Assembly (NCBI GenBank): GCA_030324005.1
Contig: JARDVH010000042.1
Coordinates: forward strand, 104,751,155-104,815,154
Length of the DNA stretch: 64,000 nucleotides
Origin: Negaprion brevirostris
Taxonomy: Eukaryota
Reading direction: 5' to 3'
The notes beneath the pieces were generated by a model. It had not been told where the DNA came from. It saw only the letters and a program-made list of their open reading frames with translations, and searched no databases. This document shows, piece by piece, positions 8,117 through 38,655 of this stretch. Numbering within the stretch: position 1 is the stretch's first letter; each line of letters opens with the position of its first letter. The translations under genes were made by a program, and so were the position numbers.

Positions 8117-8230
8117 TAGCCATAGAAATTCTAGCAATGTCTGTGCCAAATTGTTCCTTATTTTAAGTGATTCTATATTGTCCTGCTCTGAATAACATAA
8201 GGCAAGGTGTCATTTCGTTCTTCATTTTAG

Positions 8231-8408
8231 AGTGGAATTATGGCGAGAACCTGCAAAGTCCTTAGGAATTAGCATCGTTGGAGGAAAAGGAATGGGAAGT
8301 CGATTAAGTAATGGAGAGGTCATGAGAGGAATATTCATCAAGCACATTCTGGAAGACAGCCCAGCTGGAAGAAATGGAACATTAAAAACTGGGGACAGAA
8401 TTGTTGAG
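8231..8408 (+). CDS. MPDZ: MPDZ coding exon, N-terminal part of PDZ7 ([59 protein letters not shown])
   Basis: ttcattttAG acceptor, GTatgt donor, 178 nt. Nearly identical to recalled human PDZ7; lies within ORF 8232..8504. Confidence 0.97.
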
Positions 8409-10066
8409 GTATGTTTTTCAAACCATGAGTTAAGATATTTACTCACATATCTATTTTTTCAATTTAAAAAAAAGTTATTTCTGAATGGATTGCCATCGTA
8501 TTGAAATTGAGAGAAACTTAGTGGCAATGAAAAATGGTTATACAGTGAGAAGTAGAATTGTATGCCTTTTTGAATTTTGTGCATTTAATAAACTGAAGTT
8601 TACAGTACTGTTTTCCCATTTCTTGTCACTTGTTGATTAACATCAAATGGGAGGACTTCCCATTTAGTCATATACAAATCAATCAAGGGAGAGTCAGAAT
8701 TTTGCTGTAGAACATAAACTTTGACCATGCTAACCTTTAAAATTTTATTCAGCTCATCCTTTGCTGTTGAATTGCAGTGTAACTTGTTCCAGAAAATTCG
8801 TATATAGACTAAAGTTAAAAGCAATAAAAGTAGACAAATCCACCGGGTGACAAAGAGGTGATGGATTGAATAGTAAAGGATGGCAGCCTTGAATTAAAAT
8901 GCTACTACAATTACAAACTAATACGTTGTGCCTACACTTACAGGCACTTAAATGCATATGCAAATGCATATGATCATTCCAGTACTTCGTAAAGGAGCCA
9001 AACCAAGTAAGGAATAGGATTATTCAGATATCTTTTCATCCTCCAGCTTACAGGATTGAACTGCGTCAAATGCCTAAGTAACCTTGATCACTCTTGGAAT
9101 GGGAAACCTACCAGAACAGTTTAACATCATTTTTGCATTTAAGTGTGATAAAAACAATCGGCAGTCATTTGACATTGAATGCTGTAATTTGGAATGAGGT
9201 TTTCATGCAGTCAGCAGCATTTTGCTATCATTAACGTCAATTGCAATCAATGGTGAATGGGCTCAAACGCATCAAGTGTGCTCAAATACACCAAATACTC
9301 TCAGTGACCTGGATTTGAAAATACAAGGAAGTGAACGACTTAAATAATATCTGAATTAGTGGAATTTATCATTAGGTGCAAAAACATTTTTCCTCACAGT
9401 CCTTGGACCTACTACACTACCACTCCCCACATAATTGATGTCATATAAGTGTATATGAATGCTGCTGAATATACTTCAGGTGGGGAGACGCAACCATTTC
9501 TTACATTGGGTCGATTGCATACTTTTAAGAACTTAGTACATAGATGAACTCTTCTTGTTTTAGGGCTCGAGCTTTGTCACTTGAAGGGTATTGATGACTG
9601 GTACTGATGATAATATTTCCCTCCCTTAGTACTGATATAGTTTCACATTATCTTGTTTCTATATAATTAACTTCTGACAAAAAGAAATATAAATCTTGAA
9701 AGGCATGAAAGATCATAGCTCGTGATTGTTGACCAGTGACTAGGATTAGAGTTAAGATCAGCTGCAGCTTCTCTCTTGTCATCCACAGTTGCTTAGCTTG
9801 TCGTAGTCACTTTTTAAGCTTGCACCTGAAGAGTGACCACTGAATAGAGGTGCTAGAAGCTGTTGGCATTGTAGAATTTTAGCCCACCATGAGTCAGTTG
9901 CTTGAGGAGCGGGTGGGGGCAGACAGAATGGAGATTTATCTTAAATTGTTAGCAAAAGAACCTATCTGTTCATGATCAATGTTTTTTTCATTGGTTTTAG
10001 ATATATGGTGTTATGTAAGTTATATTGCAGACTTTTTTAAAAACTTAATTTAATATTGCTTTTCAG

Positions 10067-10177
10067 GTAGATGGGGTTGACTTGCGAGATGCCAGCCATG
10101 AGCAGGCAGTTGAAGCTATTCGAAAAGCAGGCAATCCTGTGGTGTTTTTAGTCCAAGGTTTAATAACCAGACCACGG
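10067..10177 (+). CDS. MPDZ: MPDZ coding exon, C-terminal part of PDZ7 ([37 protein letters not shown]), phase 0-0
   Basis: gcttttcAG acceptor, GTatgt donor, 111 nt; matches human [37 protein letters not shown]. Confidence 0.97.
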
Positions 10178-12400
10178 GTATGTAAACTGAAAAGCACAGG
10201 AGGAATAAACACTACTTAATGTGAAATCAATTAAATGATTCTGTTTATATCAAACATTACAGAGGTATATAAAAACGATGAGTTTAGTCTGTTACGTTTT
10301 AAAATGTTTACCTGCATAATCAATTGAAGTGAAAATGTTATTTTTGTAGTATTATGTAGCATTGCTGATTAGTTCTCGCTAAATATATGACATTGTAGAT
10401 GAAACGAACTACCAGAACACAGCAGACTTTTTTTCAGTTTTGAACATTTGGCTTTAAAAAAAAATCTGTTCTTCCATCAAATTTTTCTCCAAGAGGTTAA
10501 ACTAAATAACCTTCACAGTTCGATGCAACTTTGTTTTGTTTCTTGTTGCCTATTCTGTCTGTCATTGAAGTTGGGTATAAAGGCTTTTGGATAAGAATTA
10601 ACAGCAAGAAGCCTCTACAATATGTATTATTGAGGGCAGGTAACTGATAAAGCTTCATTGCGCAGAAAATTATGAAGATTATCCATGTTAAAAAGAAATT
10701 GAATACAGCACCTGAAGCTTAATTGGTAGGAGTGAGATTAGAAAGACAGCACACATCCACTACCATGTTTCCTAATCCAGAAATTATTGCCTCCAAACTC
10801 TCCATGCCCTCCCTCTTTTTTCTTCCTTCTCTCCCACACCACTTAAGTAGCAACAGTTTCTATACAACTTAAAAAATTCATCTTCCTGAGCTCAGAAGGG
10901 CAGCAAGTTGTCATGTCACTGCCTGTTATGGTTCACGGCAGCAACTCCGAAGTGTTCAATGCAGTCTGCCNNNNNNNNNNNNNNNNNNNNNNNNNNNNNN
11001 NNNNNNNNNNNNNNNNNNNNNNNNNNNNNNNNNNNNNNNNNNNNNNNNNNNNNNNNNNNNNNNNNNNNNNNNNNNNNNNNNNNNNNNNNNNNNNNNNNNN
11101 NNNNNNNNNNNNNNNNNNNCAGTTACAAACGAGAAACAAACAATCATGATAACGTATAATCTTTAACAAAGGTAGCTACAATGTTCCAATCGATCTAATC
11201 CTATCGACAAAAAAAACCTTTTCATGAGTTCAATACAGCACAGACTAATGCTCACTTGATACTGGAAATTGAGTCCTTTGGTTGGAGATTGGAAACTTTC
11301 AGTCTTGAGACACTCAACAGGTTGAAGTCAGAACAGCTTCCCAGAGACATCAGGGACTTAAGGCAAACTACTAAAGCCTTGCTTTAAGATTGCCAGCAGA
11401 ATTCCTAAGTAAAACAGGGAAAAATATTTCTTTTCAGCTTTGTTTCCTATCAAAACCCAACTGTATCTCAGAACTGAAAACAAAACCTTAAACTCATTAG
11501 GAAAAAAATCTGCAAAAACAAATGACCATCCACCTAACAGTGCAGGATCATAAAACTAATCTCAGAATAAACACAAACAACCTCATTTAAGCCACTTAAG
11601 TAGCAGCAAAAGGACGTTTCCAATCAAGACAGCAACAATACCATCACTGAAGCTTTGAGCTAAGAAACCACTGCAGCTGTGAGAACTGTAGAAATCATGA
11701 TTTAAAAAAACTCTTAAAAGGTACACTAACATTACACTGCCCTCTGGATCATCGTTTCTCAGTCAGTTTNNNNNNNNNNNNNNNNNNNNNNNNNNNNNNN
11801 NNNNNNNNNNNNNNNNNNNNNNNNNNNNNNNNNNNNNNNNNNNNNNNNNNNNNNNNNNNNNNNNNNNNNNNNNNNNNNNNNNNNNNNNNNNNNNNNNNNN
11901 NNNNNNNNNNNNNNNNNNNNNNNNNNNNNNNNNNNNNNNNNNNNNNNNNNNNNNNNNNNNNNNNNNNNNNNNNNNNNNNNNNNNNNNNNNNNNNNNNNNN
12001 NNNNNNNNNNNNNNNNNNNNNNNNNNNNNNNNNNNNNNNNNNNNNNNNNNNNNNNNNNNNNNNNNNNNNNNNNNNNNNNNNNNNNNNNNNNNNNNNNNNN
12101 NNNNNNNNNNNNNNNNNNNNNNNNNNNNNNNNNNNNNNNNNNNNNNNNNNNNNNNNNNNNNNNNNNNNNNNNNNNNNNNNNNNNNNNNNNNNNNNNNNNN
12201 NNNNNNNNNNNNNNNNNNNNNNNNNNNNNNNNNNNNNNNNNNNNNNNNNNNNNNNNNNNNNNNNNNNNNNNNNNNNNNNNNNNNNNNNNNNNNNNNNNNN
12301 NNNNNNNNNNNNNNNNNNNNNNNNNNNNNNNNNNNNNNNNNNNNNNNNNNNNNNNNNNNNNNNNNNNNNNNNNNNNNNNNNNNNNNNNNNNNNNNNNNNN

Positions 12401-12600
12401 CTCCCACACCTCTCTCCCTCCCACACCTCCCTCCCTCCCTCCCACACCTCTCTCCCTCCAAGCACTTTCCTCTCCCCAAAAGCATTACCCCTTTCCCTCC
12501 AAACACTACCTCCTCCCCCAGCCTCTCCCTCCAAACGCTGCCCCTTCCCCCAAGTTTTTTTCCTTCTCCCGCTTCTCCTTTCCTTCCCCCAACTGCTGCC
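12401..12600. repeat. C/T-rich low-complexity repeat next to a long N-run
   Basis: Repeated ctcccacacctc(tctc)cct units. Confidence 0.85.
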
Positions 12601-12642
12601 TCTGTCCCTCACCCCAGCCTCTTGCTCGCTGCTTCCAGACAC

Positions 12643-12885
12643 TGAGTCATAGAGGTTTACTGCATGGAAACAGGCCCTTCGACCCAACTTGCTCATGCTG
12701 TCCTTTTTTATTGAAACCCCTAAGCTACTCCCAATTCCCCACATTTGGCATATGTCTCTCTATATCCATCTTACCCATGTAATTGTCTAAATGTTTTTAA
12801 AAGAAAATTGTACCGCATCTACTACTACCTCCGGCAGCTTGTTCCACTCACCACCCTCTGTGTGAAAAAATTGCCCTCTGCACCC
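12643..12885 (-). mobile_element. CR1-type LINE 3' end fragment
   Basis: tcatagaggtttac...acaggcccttcgacccaac tail and accaccctctgtgtgaaaaaa (reverse of FFTQRVV). Confidence 0.75.
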
Positions 12886-14037
12886 TTCCGTCACTTGGGC
12901 TTCACTAGTCTCGCTTTGCTGTCCAGCTGGAGCCTAACCTAGCTCACCTCATTTCTGGACTGTACAGTGACCTGGCCTCGCTCCAGAGTGGACCCTAACC
13001 TCACCTTGCTCCCATGCTGATTCCGCTTCTTCACAGGACACCCTGAAAAATATCACTCAAAGTTTCCAGCCAGGCTTGAAAACATAGATCTTCAGTTAGT
13101 GGACGGAAGAGAAGAGAGGGGAAAGAAGGGAAGGATTTAGAGAGGGAAATAAGGTGTACGGCAGGAGAGGGAAAGAAAGTGCATAGAGAGAGAGACTGGA
13201 TGGGGTGTGACCTTACAGCATGAATAATCAACCGGGACTTAGGAAAATGTTGTCTGTGTACATAATCGCATTTTGTTGTGATCCCTGCAAGGTGACAGTG
13301 ATGTAGTTGATAACTGTCTTTGGTATCTCAGGAATGGTTTTGTGTGAAAATGACAGCTAAATAGTCAGTTCTAAGTGAAAATAAAATAGGATGATCACCA
13401 GGTGACTGTTCTTGAGTGCAGGTGATATAAAATGATAGTATTTGAGAACAATAGCCATTAAATAATGACAAAAGGATTATAACTTAGTATAGTTGTCAAA
13501 TTAAAGCTGTTGAAAGCACATTATGCCAAACAATATGAAGCATTTTGAGTGAGGATACATAGTTAAGAAAACCTGGACAGCAAAACGGAGAAATTCATAA
13601 ATTATGCCTGTCAGCATGCCAATTAATTTTATTATTAGAGTGCTTTGAGCGATTTTCGAAGCCATTTGGGTTAGGAATCACCGTATAGGTTATCAAAACA
13701 ACTTGGAATAGTCAGTGAGATGTTTTACCTTACGAATGCAGCTGTTTGTCTTTAGTTCTGAATGGAAGCGGTTGTACAGCTGAATGGTGCTATGTTAAAG
13801 TTTTCTTTTTAACATCTTATCTAAAAAGTGATTCTTTTTCTGTTGAAAGGTAAATTGTGGACTGGGGTATTATTGCATGTCTGTTTTAACAACAGAATTG
13901 TGAATGGTACACAAAGCATCCTTATTCCTACACACACATTAATATGGTTGTCTCCTTTAGTGCGAACTCTTCATTTTGTTTTCATCTTTTTCTAACTTCA
14001 TTTACATTTCCTTCCATTTCATCCTTTTTGTTCCCAG

Positions 14038-14118
14038 CCAGAGTCTCTCTGTAGTCGTTCATCAACATTTGTTCAGAAAAGTACCTCTACTAACCCATTC
14101 TCCTTTGATCCATCCAAG
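14038..14118 (+). CDS. MPDZ: Putative MPDZ cassette exon NPF-1 (PESLCSRSSTFVQKSTSTNPFSFDPSK), phase 0-0
   Basis: Long polypyrimidine tract (about 13965-14035) ending ttcccAG; 81 nt open in frame 0; AAG|GTaaaa donor; contains STNPF. Confidence 0.75.
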
Positions 14119-14779
14119 GTAAAAGTATCATTTTACATGTGATAGTTAACCCCTTTGACAACTTGATTCATTCTATGTTCGTCGGCAGTATTTGTTTAGT
14201 GTGCTGAGTGTTTTGAGTTTCACTGCTCTAAAACTAAACAAATAACATACATATTAACAGTTAAATATCAACTTTTCTCAAACATGTTGTATTTCTGTGG
14301 GATTTTAATCAAATTTTTTGTCAGATATGTGCCCTCATGCTTGTCAAATGTTTTGTCATATACTTATTTCCCTCTTGGAAGCAGTTTTCCTTGGAAATAT
14401 TGATATCCTTGAACATTTAGGCAATCATTCAAAGACTTTGTATATTAGGAATTGTTTTATTTTTATAAGTTTGAGTTTGTTTTTGAGAGCAGGTGAGGTA
14501 GGTTAGATTTAAATTGCTACTGTGGGTTTTGATAGAGGATGATATTTCCATCCATATTAATCTGTGGTAATTTAATTGCTTCGCCAGAAGTCTGTATGCT
14601 TTTACGTAAAAATATTTTGGTGCAAAATTGGGAAATCGTTTGTTGCTGTTGTAATAAGGAATAAAGGTAAGCTGTGATACAGAGGTGCAAGTCACAATAT
14701 TCAGCTCTGTAGAACATTCTTTTTCAGTGATACATGTACCATTTTGCCTCTAAAATTGTATCCATTGCATTCAAAGGAC

Positions 14780-15705
14780 AGTGGACGCTATTTTGAGTGA
14801 TGGCATTCGTGCACTGAGATAAATATGCAGAATAGGCAAATCATGATGTCAAGTAATGAGGAAGACTAATTTGGCATCAGACACACACATTGGTTGTCCT
14901 GGCTGAATGAATGGAAGTATGCACACGCTAGGAGGCATGGATGTGAGGTTAGCCACAGTGCTAAGTGTGTGAGGGTGAGATGAAGCAATGCATATTAGGC
15001 AGGAGTAGTAATTAATAGAGATTGCTGGTAGGTAGGTGATGTAATGTGTGGATTAAGCAGTGTATGAAAGCTACTGTTGCAGTTGATGGGATATGGCATT
15101 TCACAGTATATTCATCACTAGTTCAATTATTGAATTCATGGAATAAGACTCATGGCGTAGCCTGACAGCCATGCTACCTGATTCTATTCCCTTTTCAAAG
15201 TTTGTCTGGAGAGCCTCCTGGTCTCTGTGGCTAGATTACAGCTTTCCTACTCCAAAGCCTCCAGAACACTGCTGGAATCTTGGAGCATGGTTTTTGCCCT
15301 ATCGGTCTTGTGTCTTTCCTAGGTCAGAATTGTTTTTAGAATGGCATCCAGCTCCTGCTGCATTCAAAATGAACCCCTTCCCTCCTTTAAAGGCACAACG
15401 TGGTTCAAGTAGTGCAGGTTGGCTTGGACTCTGTCACGATTTTCGTCTCCTGCTCAGGCATACTGCGATCATTGAAATTAGCAGCCAGCATGAAGACCCC
15501 ACTCCCATTTTGGGGGAGGTTATGGAATCTCAAGAGGGTGGCTGCCTCTATGAAACTGAAGATTGAAAGCAAACAAAAGCATCTGTTTGTCGACATAAAC
15601 TTGACCACCATTTGAAAAGTAGTTGTTCGCTTCTCCAAAATTGCCACTGAAGATGAGTAGACAAGACCTTTTACAGATATCCCCTTTGGACAGAGAATTT
15701 CCTTG
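14780..15705 (-). mobile_element. Highly decayed Harbinger-like remnant (Myb-gene side)
   Basis: Composition and layout loosely resemble the 7600-7975 Myb region; no intact ORF. Confidence 0.4.
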
Positions 15706-16651
15706 CAGAATATAGACCTGTATTTGTGTTTAGTTGATACTTACACACTGATCACATTTACTGTCTTCTAAAAGTAGCATGTTATTTTCTGAATTTCATC
15801 CTAATATCCATATTTTGTGAAGAAAGCAAGTTAGAGATGGCATTATATATACTTCACGTAGTCAGGTGCCCTATTCAAATTGCATTTGGAATAGAATTTA
15901 AAGTTGGTTAGAATATGTCATGAAATAAAAAACTAAGTTGATAAATACAAAAGAACCTTACATAAACAAAAAACTTGAAAGACTATAAGTTTTTACCCCA
16001 TTACAAAATCTCCTGGTTTACCAGAACTTTAGTTATTTGCAGCTAGCAAATCTGAATAAAGATATTGGTCAGAATTCTCTGGCCATTCATGCCCCGCATT
16101 CAGCCAAATCTCCATTCACTGAAGGGGAGAGGATAATCNNNNNNNNNNNNNNNNNNNNNNNNNNNNNNNNNNNNNNNNNNNNNNNNNNNNNNNNNNNNNN
16201 NNNNNNNNNNNNNNNNNNNNNNNNNNNNNNNNNNNNNNNNNNNNNNNNNNNNNNNNNNNNNNNNNNNNNNNNNNNNNNNNNNNNNNNNNNNNNNNNNNNN
16301 NNNNNNNNNNNNNNNNNNNNNNNNNNNNNNNNNNNNNNNNNNNNNNNAGCTGTGATTTTGGATTAGGAGAAAGATTAAATTGATTAATGTGACTCTAAAG
16401 ATAAACTGAAGGGGCGATCTGTCCTGTTATTTCTATTTTGTCTCTATATGCCCAGGAGGAACTTCTGTATGAAAGGAATGTGAGCTAGAGGAGCATTATG
16501 ATATCATAGCACAGATGATTTAATCCACATTTCTTTGAGGATTGCTCAATTTTCACCTTGTTTCTATCTGATCCTTGTAATGTTAGGGATTATCAGTTTT
16601 TGTGAGAACGTTTTGTTGCAGCTTGTGACTTTACTTTTGTCTTGGTTTCAG

Positions 16652-16756
16652 AAACAACCTTTGTCTTTCCTGCAATCTAACCCCTTGCCTGAATCGAGCA
16701 GTGGCAGCAGCAATACTAACCCATTTGCTGACTCTTTTCAGACCCGCAATAGCCAG
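16652..16756 (+). CDS. MPDZ: MPDZ cassette exon NPF-2 (KQPLSFLQSNPLPESSSGSSNTNPFADSFQTRNSQ), phase 0-0; probable orthologue of the mammalian NPF-containing segment
   Basis: cttggtttcAG acceptor, CAG|GTtgga donor, 105 nt; resembles recalled human KSPLPSLLHNLYPKYNFSSTNPFADSLQINADK. Confidence 0.88.
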
Positions 16757-16765
16757 GTTGGATGA

Positions 16766-16775
16766 TGCATGCATG
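16766..16775 (+). promoter_or_regulatory. Two overlapping UGCAUG (RBFOX) motifs just downstream of the NPF-2 donor
   Basis: tgcatgcatg begins 10 nt into the intron; a further TGCATG lies at 17009-17014. Confidence 0.55.
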
Positions 16776-17729
16776 TTCTTTTTTTTTTCAGTCTAAGAAC
16801 TTTTTTTGGTGTGTTGCTTTTATTTTAATTGCACTTGACAATTTTCATAATACTTTTTAAAACTAAAATATTAACTATAATATTTTGCTATAATTACTGT
16901 TAAGAAATATTATTTATCAATAACATAAAACTGTTCTGTATGTAGAGAGGCTGAAAATTTAGATATTTAGAAATTTAAATAATGGTATTGTTCTGTGATT
17001 AGACTTGATGCATGCCGTTGGGTGCGGAGGAAATTTATATTTAATCTGATTTATTGATCTCAGATTATTTGTTGAGGGTATTGGGAACAAAAAGCAGGAA
17101 AATTCCTTTTCCTAACACACAGTGCAGAAAATTCTCCCATTAGGACTCTAAAAGGGCTAGGTAATGCGGACCAAGGTGAGCTGTTTCACCTTGTCCTGAA
17201 GAGCTAAACCAGAGCGCACAATACTTGAAAGAGAATGAATTCAAAAGTAATCTGCAGAAACAACATTTAATTGTATTGATCCGTGGAACAGAAGTCCTAG
17301 GAACTTGGTGGAAGTGGATGGTATTGAACTATTCAGATGAAAATTAGATGGGTTTCTTTAAGAGTACAAATACTTTGGGATACATCATATATATAATTTA
17401 AGATGCGGTAAGTATGGGGCGCTTGGGAGGAACAGTTCACCTATGGTGGACCCATGATTCCCAAAGCTTGGGACACTGAGATATACCTTGCCCCATGTCT
17501 AGATCTGTTGTAAATTAATAGATTAAAATTGATCGTTCGGTTAGTCAACAATGCCGTTCTTGTACCATGCAGCTACTAGATGATAGAAGGTAAACTAGAT
17601 CATCTATCTTCATTTACCAATTCTTGTGTTCCTATCTTACTTCATCACTTACTGTGTGTTTAGGTGTGAATGGTGAATTGTCTAAAATGGCAAAAGCAAG
17701 GTGCTTATCCTGTTTTCTAACATGGAAAC

Positions 17730-18510
17730 AAAAATAGGCCAATTAGCAAGCCCAACTCTGCTCACCATTCAGTTAGATCTTGGCTTTTATTATATATAAT
17801 TTAGTTACTTTTGATCCATGCCCCTTGATATACCCTTACCCAACAAAAATCCATTCATAATAGCCATGACTATTTCTCTTATACAGAATCCACAGCCTTT
17901 GAGGAGAGAATTCTAGGTTTCTTTAATCTTTTGCTCAGATAAAATACTTTCTGATTTAGCTCTTAACTGACCTATCACTGGTTTTAATATTATGGTCTCT
18001 TGTTCTGGATGCCATCACCAGAGGAAACAGTTTTTCTTAACTACCCCATCAAAACCCCTTACCTCTTTAAGCACCTTAATTATATCATCACTCAATCTTG
18101 TAAATTTACAAGAAAACAAACCAGGTTTATGCACTTGCCTCCAAAGTTAACTGTTACAGCCCTCATATCTTTCTGGTAAATTATCCTTAATTGTCTTGGC
18201 CAATGTGTATTTACAGAAGTTTGGTGTCCAACACTAAATGCATAGACAGGAACTAACCAAAACTCTGTACAACTCCAAACTCCTTCAACTTTTGAACTCC
18301 AGGCCTCTGAGATAAAGACCAACATTCCATTAGTCTGTTTGAACTTTTGCACTTTCTTTTAGTGATTGTGTAGATGGACTTTTAAATCCCTTTGCTCCTC
18401 CACAGATCCTACAAAAAAAGTTGTTCTTTCCTTCTCAGATCCAAAGGATTTAGTTTAGTTTATCTTAGAGTTAAATTGCACTTTCCCACATTGAAGTCCA
18501 CTTGCTTTAC
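17730..18510 (-). mobile_element. Old CR1-type LINE fragment
   Basis: ORF 18092..18352 starts with QTNGMLVFIS (cf. KANGMLAFI); reverse CR1 tail near 17735. Confidence 0.7.
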
Positions 18511-19457
18511 TTTTTGTCTCTTTGCAACCTTTGCTCTCATCCAAGTAACTTAATGATCTTCTTAATTTACTGTCATATGAAAATGTGGTGAAACCACTCT
18601 ATTCTTTCAGCCAAGATTTTGCTGGAAATGTTGAGGCTTCAATCCAGGTCCTTAGAGAACAACAACCATCACATTCCACTAACCAGGGAGCATTCCACTC
18701 TCTAGTTCCAAATCACTTAATGACCATTATCAAAATGTTACTTTCAATTCCTTCTGCTAGGTTTTTGCTAATTGTTTCTCAGCTGGAGTACAGGTGTTTC
18801 CCCACCAAAGGGGAAGGGAAACTGAAAGATGAAACACTTGCCACTCAGTACCATCTTTTGGCTGAAGTGTTGACAATAGCACGGGAAATGATTGCCTTTC
18901 TATCTTAGCAAGGGCAATGGGGAATCTAAATGAGATACTAAAAGGGTGAAAATACCAACACCAAAACTGATTTTCATATTGTAAGTATCATTTTTATATT
19001 GTCATATTTAAATTAAAGTGCTGGAGGAAATATTAAAATTAGTGCATTCCATATGATAAAATCCATTCTTGATACATTGGAATTGTATATTTGTCTCCCT
19101 GATAAACTTCAGCTTCAAAATCACAACTGCTATTTGGCTGCTATGCATCAACTCAACACTGATTGAGATTTGAACTTTGGAACTACTTGATCTGTGGCTT
19201 AGCCTCAGATTTAGTGAACTCCCTGACCCATAAAAAAAAAACTTTTTTGAGATTTATTTCTAACTTATGGCCCCCACAACCTTAAACATTTACTTATAAC
19301 ATCATTCCCATAATATGCTATCAGAAGTAGTATCCGTTACATCAATGATGAAAACGTATATTCTGAAGTACAAATAACATTTTTTTTCTCAATTATTCTT
19401 GACCTTTCCACTGACTCTACATTGTCATACTGCTTCAACAATCTCCTGTACTAAATG

Positions 19458-19762
19458 AGTTGGCACAGCGGTTAGCCTGCTGCCTCACAGCATCAGGGAC
19501 CTAGTTCAGTTCCGGCCTCGGGTCACTGTCTGTGCACATTCTCCTCCATCTGTGTGCATTTCCTCTGGGTACTCCGGTTTCTTCCCTCAGTCCAAAGATG
19601 TGTGGGTTGGGTTGAATGGCCATGCTATATTGACCCTAGTGTCAGGGGGATTAGCAGGATAAATATGTGGGATTATGGGAATAGGGCCTCCGTTGGGATT
19701 GTGGTCGGTGCAGACCTGATGGGCCAAATGGCTTCCTTCAGCGCTCTAGGGATTCTATGAAA
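19458..19762 (+). mobile_element. tRNA-derived SINE (HE1/V-SINE-like) with CR1-type tail
   Basis: ggcacagcggttagc...gcctcacagc head, shared core ggtttcttccctcagtccaaagatgtg, tail gatgggccaaatggcttcc...gattctatga. Confidence 0.9.
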
Positions 19763-20019
19763 TTTCCTCCAGTTAGATACAGCAAAGGCTGAAGTCATTG
19801 CCTTCTCTTCCTGCTACAAAATTCTGTTCCCAATCCACTGGTTCCTTGGACAACGTGACTTACATATTTGGATGAGAAAACATTTAAAGAAATAACCTAA
19901 AGATTTGGTTTCTGTAGTTGTACTAGCTTATAGCCTGACCTGCTGTTTCATAAAATGTTATCTTTAATGGGCTGGTTATGAGTATTCCTTTACCTGATAG
20001 CATTTATGCATTTTAATAG

Positions 20020-20106
20020 ACCTCTACAACTACAAATGATGAGAAGGCCTTCTGTCAAGCCCCTTATTTTATGACCAAAAATCCATTTTCTGAAAATAAA
20101 TTCAAG
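20020..20106 (+). CDS. MPDZ: Putative MPDZ cassette exon NPF-3 (TSTTTNDEKAFCQAPYFMTKNPFSENKFK), phase 0-0
   Basis: gcattttaatAG acceptor (weak tract), 87 nt open frame, AAG|GTtagt donor; NPF at the same distance from the donor as in NPF-1 and NPF-4. Confidence 0.65.
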
Positions 20107-20315
20107 GTTAGTGAATCACTCTGATGTGATCTTAATTCCTACTGACAAGAACGATGATGTAGTAATAACAGGGATGTACACTGGATTAATTTAATAAATT
20201 AAAAATGTTTAATCAAATTACAGATTGCAATTATTAATTTTCAGAAATTACCAGTAACATCTAAAGATGAGGATATTTGCCTCATTTCAACCATTTGTTT
20301 GTTTTGTTGTCGTAG

Positions 20316-20387
20316 GTCTCTGCATATCGACCTAGGACTTTTCTGCGCCCTTTCCCAACTAACCCATTTGCAATCAATCCATTTAAG
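20316..20387 (+). CDS. MPDZ: Putative MPDZ cassette exon NPF-4 (VSAYRPRTFLRPFPTNPFAINPFK), phase 0-0, two NPF motifs
   Basis: tttgtttgttttgttgtcgtAG acceptor, 72 nt open frame, AAG|GTttgt donor; TNPFAINPFK. Confidence 0.75.
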
Positions 20388-21629
20388 GTTTGTCTCATCA
20401 CACTGGGTTTTTGGATCAGATGTAACTGCTGTAATTTACATGTGAATGTGATTCTTAACGGTGATGTGGAAAGTTGATTATAATGGCTAAGATCACCAGG
20501 GGGATTATAATTGGCCTTACAATTCCTCTTTAATGCAAAAATTGAGCAAACAGGTTTCCCCTTACTGATTTGCTTCTTCCTGAGATACTAGAAGTGTATT
20601 TGTGTTGATGTTGGCCAAGGACAGGAGTGGGCTAAGCTATACTGCCTTTCAATGACCAATAACATACCAAGATTTACAATCTAAATTCAATAAAGAATAA
20701 CCGCTTGAATTGTAAAGTATCCAGTGCCGCTGAAATCATGTTCAATAAGGAGTTGATACCCTGAGAAGGGGGGGGTAGGGGGAGAGAAAATTTGGAGGAA
20801 AATGTTTTTAATATTTCTTTTAATAAACTTTTTTTCTACTTGNNNNNNNNNNNNNNNNNNNNNNNNNNNNNNNNNNNNNNNNNNNNNNNNNNNNNNNNNN
20901 NNNNNNNNNNNNNNNNNNNNNNNNNNNNNNNNNNNNNNNNNNACATATTTATTGGTTATTACTAACCAATGTTCTGAAGAAAAAAGTATGGAAAATCTTG
21001 CTTAGAGGAAATTTTAGGTGTTTGGATAACAAAATTAAAATCATACCAAGATCAAAACAAAACAAAAAACAATGTGGAAAAACAAACCTGCCTCCAGTCA
21101 ACAAGCCCCCATAACAAATTCACAATTAAGTAGCATCAAAACTCAAATAAAAGTATTACTCAAGAAACAGGTAACTTAGAAAATGAGTTTTAATATCTTT
21201 CTCTTGTTTAATCTCAGTATATAAATGAAAAGTTGTTCTCTGAATTGATACCGGAAAAAAAAGTGGACCATGTTCCTTTTCACTGCCATTATAGTGGGAA
21301 AAATAAATTTCATTTTCTTGGCACCAGTAAAGTGTGACTTAAACCAAATAGTGTTTGGCAGAACATCTTGAGTGAGGATCATATCCTACTAAGTGATAAG
21401 CAAGAGGTACAATTAAATGCAGCAGTGATTCAGAATTCTGTCCCATTCAAGACAGATATTTTACCAATGTTGCTAATGACAAAACCCTTGCAACCATTTG
21501 TATTTTGTGTCCTTGATAGTATCATAGAATGGCTACAGCACAGATAGAGGTCATTCAGCCTTGTGACTAGATAGCTCTCAGTAAGAGCAAGTTGCTTAGT
21601 CTAGCCTCTCTGCCCTTTGCCTTTTGAAA

Positions 21630-33225: not shown

Positions 33226-33403
33226 ACCTCCAGCCAGCCAGATATCGAGACTGAAATTATGTCAGCACTTGCAGACCCTCAATTGTTACCACCTGAATCT
33301 GTTGAAAAAGAAGAAACGAGCAATGTTGTGGCATCACTGGGGACTATGGGCATTAAATCCGAAGATGGATTGGAGGAAGAGGATGAATTTGGTTACAGCT
33401 GGA
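33226..33403 (+). CDS. MPDZ: MPDZ coding exon, PDZ7-PDZ8 linker (TSSQPDIETE...GLEEEDEFGYSW), phase 0-1
   Basis: aatacatAG acceptor, GTatgt donor, 178 nt; ends in the conserved EDEFGYSW motif of MPDZ. Confidence 0.93.
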
Positions 33404-38458: not shown

Positions 38459-38655
38459 AAAAGATCAAACAACGGTATGGAAGCTTGATGGGGGAACTGC
38501 ATATGATTGAACTGGAGAAGGGGAAGAGTGGGCTGGGCCTCAGCCTGGCTGGCAACAAGGATCGATCAAGAATGAGTGTTTTTGTAGTTGGCATTGATGC
38601 AAATGGAGCAGCTGGCAAAGATGGCAGGATACGGATTGCAGATGAGTTACTAGAG
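38459..38655 (+). CDS. MPDZ: MPDZ coding exon, N-terminal part of PDZ8 ([65 protein letters not shown]), GC donor
   Basis: tcttgaAG acceptor gives phase 1 (a+aa = Lys), 197 nt; homology ends at GAG|GCaagt; GLGL loop present; lies within ORF 38410..38673. Confidence 0.96.

Follow-up and report, generated by a model that had tools for sequence, protein, structure and literature searches.

The MPDZ gene of Negaprion brevirostris carries, between its seventh and eighth PDZ domains, four small exons (cassettes A to D), each encoding at least one NPF motif; this NPF module is real, ancient, and splice-tuned, with a predicted cellular effect. We put at roughly 0.6 the probability that splicing of the four NPF cassettes sets the EH-domain coupling of MPDZ and of its cargo. 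In the proposed mechanism, four separately skippable exons equip a predicted-disordered PDZ7-PDZ8 linker with anywhere from no NPF motif to five, the chosen isoform would set the number of EH domains (EPS15/EPS15L1, intersectin, EHD) that MPDZ can bind, and this number would in turn set the strength with which PDZ-bound membrane cargo is coupled to endocytic or recycling machinery. An earlier note on this DNA knew of no description of such an array and allowed that it might appear in automated gene models; the cassettes occur in the models of many sharks and are therefore already annotated, and in the papers found the NPF cassette module of MPDZ was not previously described.

Within the window (the whole 64,000-nucleotide stretch analyzed), each cassette is preceded by AG and followed by GT, is phase 0, and is free of stops. 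Together the four comprise 345 nt and encode 115 aa with five NPFs. Coordinates, boundaries, phases, and peptides read by the earlier note were all reproduced, and the flanking donor (10177) and acceptor (33226) are both phase 0 in the sequence and in annotated Mustelus proteins. The exons are collinear with annotated MPDZ, and the 13-PDZ layout matches: 13 PDZ carboxylate loops can be counted in a full-length shark isoform, and the NPF linker falls between the 7th and 8th, which bears out the assigned location of the array.

Table. Features of the MPDZ cassette region, in window positions.
Feature	Positions	Strand	Basis or remark
MPDZ exon, first part of PDZ7	8231..8408	+	tblastn with MPDZ proteins; joint 8408>10067 in contig, run X1
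MPDZ exon ending PDZ7, phase-0 donor 5' of array	10067..10177	+	tblastn, contig joint
Cassette A, 81 nt, 27 aa, STNPFSFD	14038..14118	+	translation, contig joints
ACTAAC in A, Thr-Asn codons, also in bird A	14089..14094	+	match to QKI-type ACUAAY
Cassette A NPF codons	14092-14100	+	six codons before donor
Cassette B, 105 nt, 35 aa, NTNPFADS	16652..16756	+	translation, contig joints; weak donor
ACTAAC in B, also in bird B	16715..16720	+	QKI-type match
Cassette B NPF codons	16718-16726	+	
Two overlapping TGCATG just after B, RBFOX-type	16766..16775	+	motif match
Cassette C, 87 nt, 29 aa, TKNPFSEN	20020..20106	+	translation, contig joints; weak acceptor
Cassette C NPF codons	20080-20088	+	
Cassette D, 72 nt, 24 aa, PTNPFAINPFK	20316..20387	+	translation, contig joints
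ACTAAC in D, in bird D, not in a teleost D	20358..20363	+	QKI-type match
Cassette D NPF codons (two)	20361-20369, 20376-20384	+	
Linker exon E, 3' of array, 178 nt, phase 0 to 1	33226..33403	+	annotated proteins, bird comparison
Coding part of exon starting PDZ8	38461..38655 (boundaries approximate)	+	tblastn, PDZ count

NPF placement in exons of the window exceeds chance. The + strand holds 19 NPF-coding triplets. A crude exon filter (in-frame AG..GT and a pyrimidine tract of >= 0.6) retained the four of A, B, and D and 0/14 of the others; the triplet of C failed because of its weak acceptor. Genome-wide, the pattern 'TNPF, five codons, AAG|GT' had 17 matches in 2.69 Gb, two of them A and D, against 43 for the reversed control, a comparison that is weak given that the pattern was built from those exons. 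EH-domain genes are present in the same genome (five matches, EHD-like sequences).

The splice joints predicted by the earlier note were found in one 9,258-nt contig from a relative (run X1, its RNA nature being a guess), in which PDZ7, A, B, C, and D were joined at the predicted GT..AG sites (10177>14038, 14118>16652, 16756>20020, and 20106>20316, after cut adjustment of +1/+2). Such contigs record joints rather than inclusion levels, and no skipping joint occurred among the 15 joints listed for the run, which had 265 more. The joint from D to 33226 rests on annotated Mustelus proteins. An old retrocopy in the Negaprion brevirostris genome is a record of an isoform lacking A, with matches of 24/27 nt at PDZ7>B, 24/27 at B>C, and 23/27 at C>D, and at most 14/27 for any alternative. 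We also surveyed the linkers of 121 chondrichthyan proteins, omitting eight without a parsable linker and classing Cetorhinus, Heterodontus, Hypanus, Narcine, and one Mobula row by eye. That all 16 inclusion patterns keep the frame, adding 0 to 115 aa and 0 to 5 NPFs, holds arithmetically; 12 of the 16 were present among 73 parsed shark models, which are automated. Each of A, B, C, and D was missing from some of these automated models.

Orthologues of A, B, and D occur in birds and mammals, and of D also in teleosts. Birds have three such exons (A, B, and D) and placental mammals at least two (B and D), correcting the single segment that the earlier note had given for human MPDZ. The A orthologue, found in birds and a marsupial (wombat), agrees with the shark exon in NPF, length class, and donor, and that of D has 24 aa and a single NPF in all three of teleosts, birds, and mammals. 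Bony vertebrate segments scored best against the shark cassette at the same position (A, 34-38 versus 25.5 or less; NPF-bearing B, 46.5-58 versus 16.5 or less; D, 47-56.5 versus 32 or less; Turnix B and bat D rows left out). In a bird contig, A, B, and D were phase-0 exons with conserved weak donors, the first 11 intron bases after B and the first eight after D being identical. Frame, NPF codons, and even weak donors, the conservation of which the earlier note had proposed as a check, are kept to a bird; neither this check nor that of the splice joints refuted the note. Of the intron flanks compared between shark and bird, 1/10 was significant (downstream of B, p 0.003).

Among shark species the NPF was kept in A 10/10, B 11/12, C 11/12, and D 11/12 and 12/12 (two motifs), while flanking residues varied. 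Between shark and amniotes the motif was more conserved than its flanks for A, B, and D; this was not so in rays, whale shark, or teleost B and C. Across 239 vertebrate MPDZ proteins (isoforms, hence not independent), 349 NPFs fell in the PDZ7-PDZ8 linker, as against three in the remaining 442,833 residues. In a lamprey MPDZ-like gene, two NPFs lie in a skippable segment of 68 aa, which gave no significant alignment to A (p 0.50), and hagfish has one NPF at the same place. PATJ/INADL and invertebrate MPDZ-like proteins share the PDZ7-linker-PDZ8 layout of shark MPDZ; unlike it, no NPF was found in this linker in the frog INADL, amphioxus, Lingula, and Antedon proteins examined.

Tandem exon duplication is the likely origin of cassettes A, C, and D, judging by their sequence. 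Each of the three closes on AAG|GT six codons past its NPF, so that they have phase and NPF-to-donor distance in common, and their last 30 nt match at 18-22/30, vs 10-12/30 for pairs with B, which differs. Upstream sequence is not shared among A, C, and D (6-13/30).

NPFs are dispensable in some lineages, as indicated by rays, by a whale-shark model, and by the B and C segments of teleosts, which lack NPF altogether. In rays, A or C occurred in 0/40 parsed models, the first NPF of D was lost in 7/7 species, and that of B was kept in 2/7; exons B and D were retained with altered NPF, and Mobula hypostoma was without any NPF. The single whale-shark model had lost three of four NPFs, with NPF residues accounting for 4/9 changes (p 0.025; a post hoc test on one model with possible errors). 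The NPF of C was found in sharks only: teleosts have an NPF-less segment at its position, the homology of teleost segments to C being weak (shuffle p 0.05 and 0.41), and no remnant of C was found in the intron between B and D of a bird (p 0.30). These losses, together with the overall likeness of shark MPDZ proteins (whale vs bamboo shark, 90% similar), would fit a reading in which function rests with one or two motifs (B, D), the five-NPF shark array is mostly a leftover of tandem duplication preserved by slow change, and its combinations are tolerated variation rather than a graded dial. We regard this as unlikely, as A has persisted from shark to bird and wombat and the shark NPFs have been kept amid varying flanks. 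Rays and teleosts provide a natural loss series for motif function.

Coupling to EH domains through several NPFs would follow known precedent. LIG_EH_1 ligands (epsin, stonin 2, DAB2, AGFG1, and Numb) carry several S/T-N-P-F motifs in a disordered linker, as does shark MPDZ in its predicted-disordered one, and in epsin and stonin 2 multiple NPFs give avidity, which the shark array may likewise confer. Shark MPDZ differs in its host, a 13-PDZ junction/receptor scaffold for which searches found no EH link, and in having its motifs on one exon each. Alternative splicing also adds or removes an NPF segment in DAB2 (p96/p67) and synaptojanin-1 (p170/p145), changing the link to EPS15-type proteins. 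Those two cases are on/off switches of one block, whereas shark MPDZ has four independent phase-0 exons, zero to five motifs, and 12 patterns in models.

Consistent with a disordered linker, AlphaFold2 predicted pLDDT <50 and no secondary structure for residues 72-239 of the all-included Mustelus isoform. The T that precedes NPF in A, B, and D1 (the first motif of D) agrees with the preference for S/T invoked in the earlier note; C has K and D2 has I. The same note took the NPFs for EH ligands, which has in vitro support for human B with an EPS15 EH domain; binding by A, C, and D is predicted. Cassette B is the orthologue of human MPDZ 1259-1283, and two overlapping peptides (1259-1274 and 1268-1283) were selected by EPS15 EH 121-215 in phage display with confidence 4 and 3 (PMC8769072, supplement). 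The human peptide is tagged LIG_EH_1 and has phosphosites listed; the same bait picked DAB2 and AGFG1 peptides and also NPF peptides of unlikely partners, e.g., BCL11B and DLGAP5 (PMC8769072). In the table of that study, MPDZ-EPS15 has an interactor evidence count of 0 and is in neither HuRi nor BioPlex, and no interaction of MPDZ with an EH protein at the cell level is recorded there (PMC8769072). A complex prediction for a shark EHD-type EH domain with cassette C (score 0.15, mark 0.34) was counted neither for nor against binding. The literature searched, which largely lacked subscription papers, yielded none that deals with NPF motifs or EH binding of MPDZ.

It is quite unlikely that the cassettes act through other partners or linker length, with EH binding incidental. 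Amniote A contains an NPxY-like NPFY, a sequence present in wombat, quail, and lamprey, and amniote D an RVxF-like PP1 site (RVLF, RIIF, RVTF, RVNF); the linker is also rich in Ser/Thr phosphosites, human B has the listed phosphosites, and the exons that rays retain have changed NPFs. However, no NPxY or RVxF occurs in the Negaprion brevirostris exons, S/T/K-N-P-F is common to all cassettes and lineages, and B was picked in vitro by the EPS15 EH domain.

Splicing factors may control the cassettes by tissue. The QKI-type element is ACUAAY and the RBFOX-type element TGCATG; conserved RBFOX sites after B were rejected, being absent at that place in the bird. Shark and bird alike have ACTAAC in their cassettes A, B, and D, with a chance of ~0.02 for the bird, or 0.08 for the Thr codon alone, as calculated from synonymous conservation in flanking constitutive exons (17/39 four-fold and 26/42 two-fold sites). 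That conservation resides partly at the RNA level in this element of the Thr-Asn codons, with the peptide secondary, is very unlikely: C and a teleost D lack it, low synonymous change is common in alternative exons anyway, and shark and bird retain Pro and Phe despite differing in the codon for Pro, a sign of selection on the peptide as well, making such an element better an addition to EH coupling than a replacement.

Counted from neighbouring stretches of the shark gene, the PDZ7-ending exon would be approximately exon 26, and a human or mouse exon 27/28 position would fit cassettes B or D. MPDZ 'exon 27' or 'exon 28' (human, mouse) is a cassette that MBNL represses and that is mis-spliced in myotonic dystrophy (PMC12946605, PMC9253038, PMC7913682). 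This exon is likely B or D, judging by exon count; the relevant passages give neither coordinates nor exon size, and no coordinates were found in the literature searched. Unlike the reading proposed here, those passages treat it as a splicing marker and mention neither NPF nor EH domains (PMC12946605, PMC9253038, PMC7913682). A passage of a further paper names an MPDZ exon without identification (PMC4817768), and 10.1101/2021.04.20.440659 has no mention of one.

MPDZ has been described as a clustering scaffold (PMC5933922). Shark MPDZ, with five motifs, represents the fullest version of the module. If its linker recruits EH proteins in proportion to exon choice, one gene would yield both cargo-anchoring forms and uptake or recycling forms, and a much-used myotonic dystrophy splicing marker would gain a concrete function; control of endocytosis or recycling, beyond binding in vitro, is predicted. 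More tentatively, and in our view doubtfully, MPDZ might be an unrecognised splice-tuned endocytic adaptor throughout vertebrates, in which every cassette contributes one EH-binding site, MBNL, and QKI via ACUAAC, set motif number by tissue, and the myotonic dystrophy exon is this switch, so that its mis-splicing would alter the turnover of the junction proteins and receptors held.

Re-reading the sequence reproduced the four cassettes of the PDZ7-PDZ8 linker exactly as the earlier note had given them, each phase 0, stop-free, and bounded by AG/GT; together they encode 115 aa and five NPF (Asn-Pro-Phe) motifs. The placement of the array was equally sound, the linker following the seventh and preceding the eighth of 13 PDZ loops, and this linker was predicted to be disordered (pLDDT <50 across residues 72-239). 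Judged by sequence, the host gene is MPDZ and the source shark is close to Mustelus; exon E shares 97% identity with Mustelus, whose model differs from the four cassettes by one residue. Repeats of very high copy number (depth >70,000 in the DNA-like runs) occur in the intron preceding A and in that directly ahead of C. A PDZ6-region exon was present twice upstream, the twins having identical upstream 30 bases and differing by one residue, reflecting either local duplication or an assembly artefact.

Coordinates of the features, in window positions except where a contig of the same genome (G000:C1, G000:C42) or the retrocopy-bearing stretch L003 is named
Feature	Position	Strand	Length or identity
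PDZ7-ending exon	10067-10177		
Cassette A	14038-14118		81 nt
Cassette B	16652-16756		105 nt
Cassette C	20020-20106		87 nt
Cassette D	20316-20387		72 nt
Exon E	33226-33403		178 nt
Repeat before A	12310-13131		
Repeat just before C	19297-20118		
X1 contigs, B-C intron	17476-19375		
Twin PDZ6-region exons	G000:C42, ~40.0 and 37.2 kb upstream of window		
Partial processed MPDZ pseudogene	L003 7160-7720 (G000:C1 ~114,665,160-114,665,720)	minus	84-90%

Four public sequencing runs were compared with window 8200-20500, a stretch that ends before the D-to-E joint. In X1, a run of presumed RNA from a related organism, the four predicted joints, each GT..AG, were all present in one 9,258-nt contig together with the upstream control joint; such contigs give joints, not inclusion levels. 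The exact joints were absent from the other three runs over this stretch, which instead contained diverged, intron-free pieces of 84-90% identity. Tracing these pieces led to a retrocopy carried by the genome of the window itself; it bears stops and small deletions and runs through three exons of the PDZ7 region into B, C, and the first part of D. Its junctions, ordered PDZ7>B>C>D without A, fit the next exon at 24/27, 24/27, and 23/27 bases, against ≤14/27 for any alternative, and thus offer evidence from the genome itself, with no reliance on annotation, for splicing of B, C, and D and for the optional use of A. Similar intron-free contigs in all three DNA-like runs argue that the retrocopy is old. 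Five short X1 contigs (depth 3.5-4.6) lay in the B-C intron and only there, possibly a retained intron or unspliced RNA.

We retrieved 121 chondrichthyan MPDZ models and could parse 113 (73 shark, 40 ray). The caveat that the array might appear in automated gene models was correct, the exons being annotated in sharks. These automated shark models showed 12 of 16 inclusion patterns (none, A, B, C, AB, AC, CD, ABC, ABD, ACD, BCD, and ABCD); D, AD, BC, and BD occurred in none of the 73. D without C was found only once, and the two exons are spaced 209 nt apart. Some Scyliorhinus isoforms (models P0127 and P0128) omit the phase-0 PDZ7-ending exon plus all cassettes, which would truncate PDZ7, and three models (Heterodontus and Narcine orthologues of B) use an inner acceptor, giving a shorter B that starts SNPL.

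Bony-vertebrate cassettes each matched their own shark cassette best in sequence scoring, which omits the Turnix B and bat D rows. A was carried by wombat and bird proteins and by no placental model among proteins of ≤2,000 residues, B by mammals and birds, and a 24-aa D with one NPF by whales, a bat, birds, and teleosts. In a bird contig (L030), A, B, and D are phase-0 exons, and no trace of C was detected there (p 0.30). Bird and shark share weak donors at B (11 identical intron bases) and D (8 identical), while the constitutive PDZ7 donor is unlike between them. An MPDZ-like gene of lamprey encodes a 68-aa segment bearing two NPFs; two isoforms omit this segment, and its alignment to A is not significant (p 0.50). 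Hagfish has one NPF at the same linker place, and linker NPFs were absent from Amphioxus, Lingula, Antedon, and frog INADL. Of the NPFs in 239 vertebrate isoforms, 349 fell in the PDZ7-PDZ8 linker and 3 elsewhere. Given this species spread and linker confinement, the module looks very old and confined to vertebrates. A, C, and D have a common ending, NPF-six codons-AAG/GT, with 18-22/30 terminal bases alike, which suggests tandem duplication. Amniote D (P0006, P0108, P0070, and P0115) contains an RVxF-like stretch (RVLF, RIIF, RVTF, RVNF), lacking in sharks and teleosts, which we take to be a possible PP1 docking site.

Sharks retained the NPFs in every species except the whale shark, whose single model is without A and keeps only one of its four NPFs. 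A and C were found in 0 of 40 ray models; the first NPF of D was altered in 7/7 ray species and the NPF of B in 5/7, and Mobula hypostoma has none. Teleost segments at the B and C positions have no NPF. As these ray, whale shark, and teleost losses show, the motifs are dispensable in some lineages, and they are long conserved in others.

Counting the coding exons detected in the shark gene without a 14-aa optional one, the exon that ends PDZ7 is the 24th; it presumably becomes exon 26 once a short exon with the start codon and, as in human, an untranslated exon are added. This count makes B or D the likely counterpart of MPDZ exon 27 or 28. Exon 27 appears among MBNL-repressed cassettes (PMC12946605), and splicing of exon 28 is disturbed in dystrophy astrocytes and in hippocampus from patients, with inclusion of ~28% in cultured wild-type astrocytes and ~85% in mouse cortex (PMC9253038). 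Skipping of exon E would break the frame. In shark and bird alike, A, B, and D encode their Thr-Asn pair as ACTAAC, with a probability of chance sharing of ~0.02-0.08 from flanking synonymous rates, and this hexamer is absent from C and one teleost D; QKI-type dual coding is at most a lead.

DAB2 and synaptojanin 1 already place NPF segments under splicing control, so MPDZ offers no new principle. In contrast to these, the host in MPDZ is a PDZ scaffold, and each independent exon contributes one motif. The array is real, a splice-variable NPF module and a variation on these known segments. Gene models, one supplement row, and a disease marker each record a piece of it already; their joining was not found in the literature, nor did a search with most subscription papers outside its scope yield a paper on NPF motifs in MPDZ or on its binding to EH domains.

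In a published peptide-selection table, EPS15 EH 121-215 selected human MPDZ 1259-1274 (confidence 4) and 1268-1283 (confidence 3), whose overlap is NPFADSL of cassette B; the pair scores 0 for interactor evidence there and is recorded in neither HuRi nor BioPlex, and among the first 30 of 416 rows this bait also took NPF peptides of unlikely partners (PMC8769072). A zebrafish retina study places Cx35.1 near both Mupp1 and Eps15l1a, by proximity only (PMC13189625). EH-domain genes are present in the window's genome. We infer that A, C, and D would also bind EH domains, and likewise avidity and any effect on cargo. Most likely, with a probability of roughly 0.6, the cassettes set the EH-binding valency of MPDZ.
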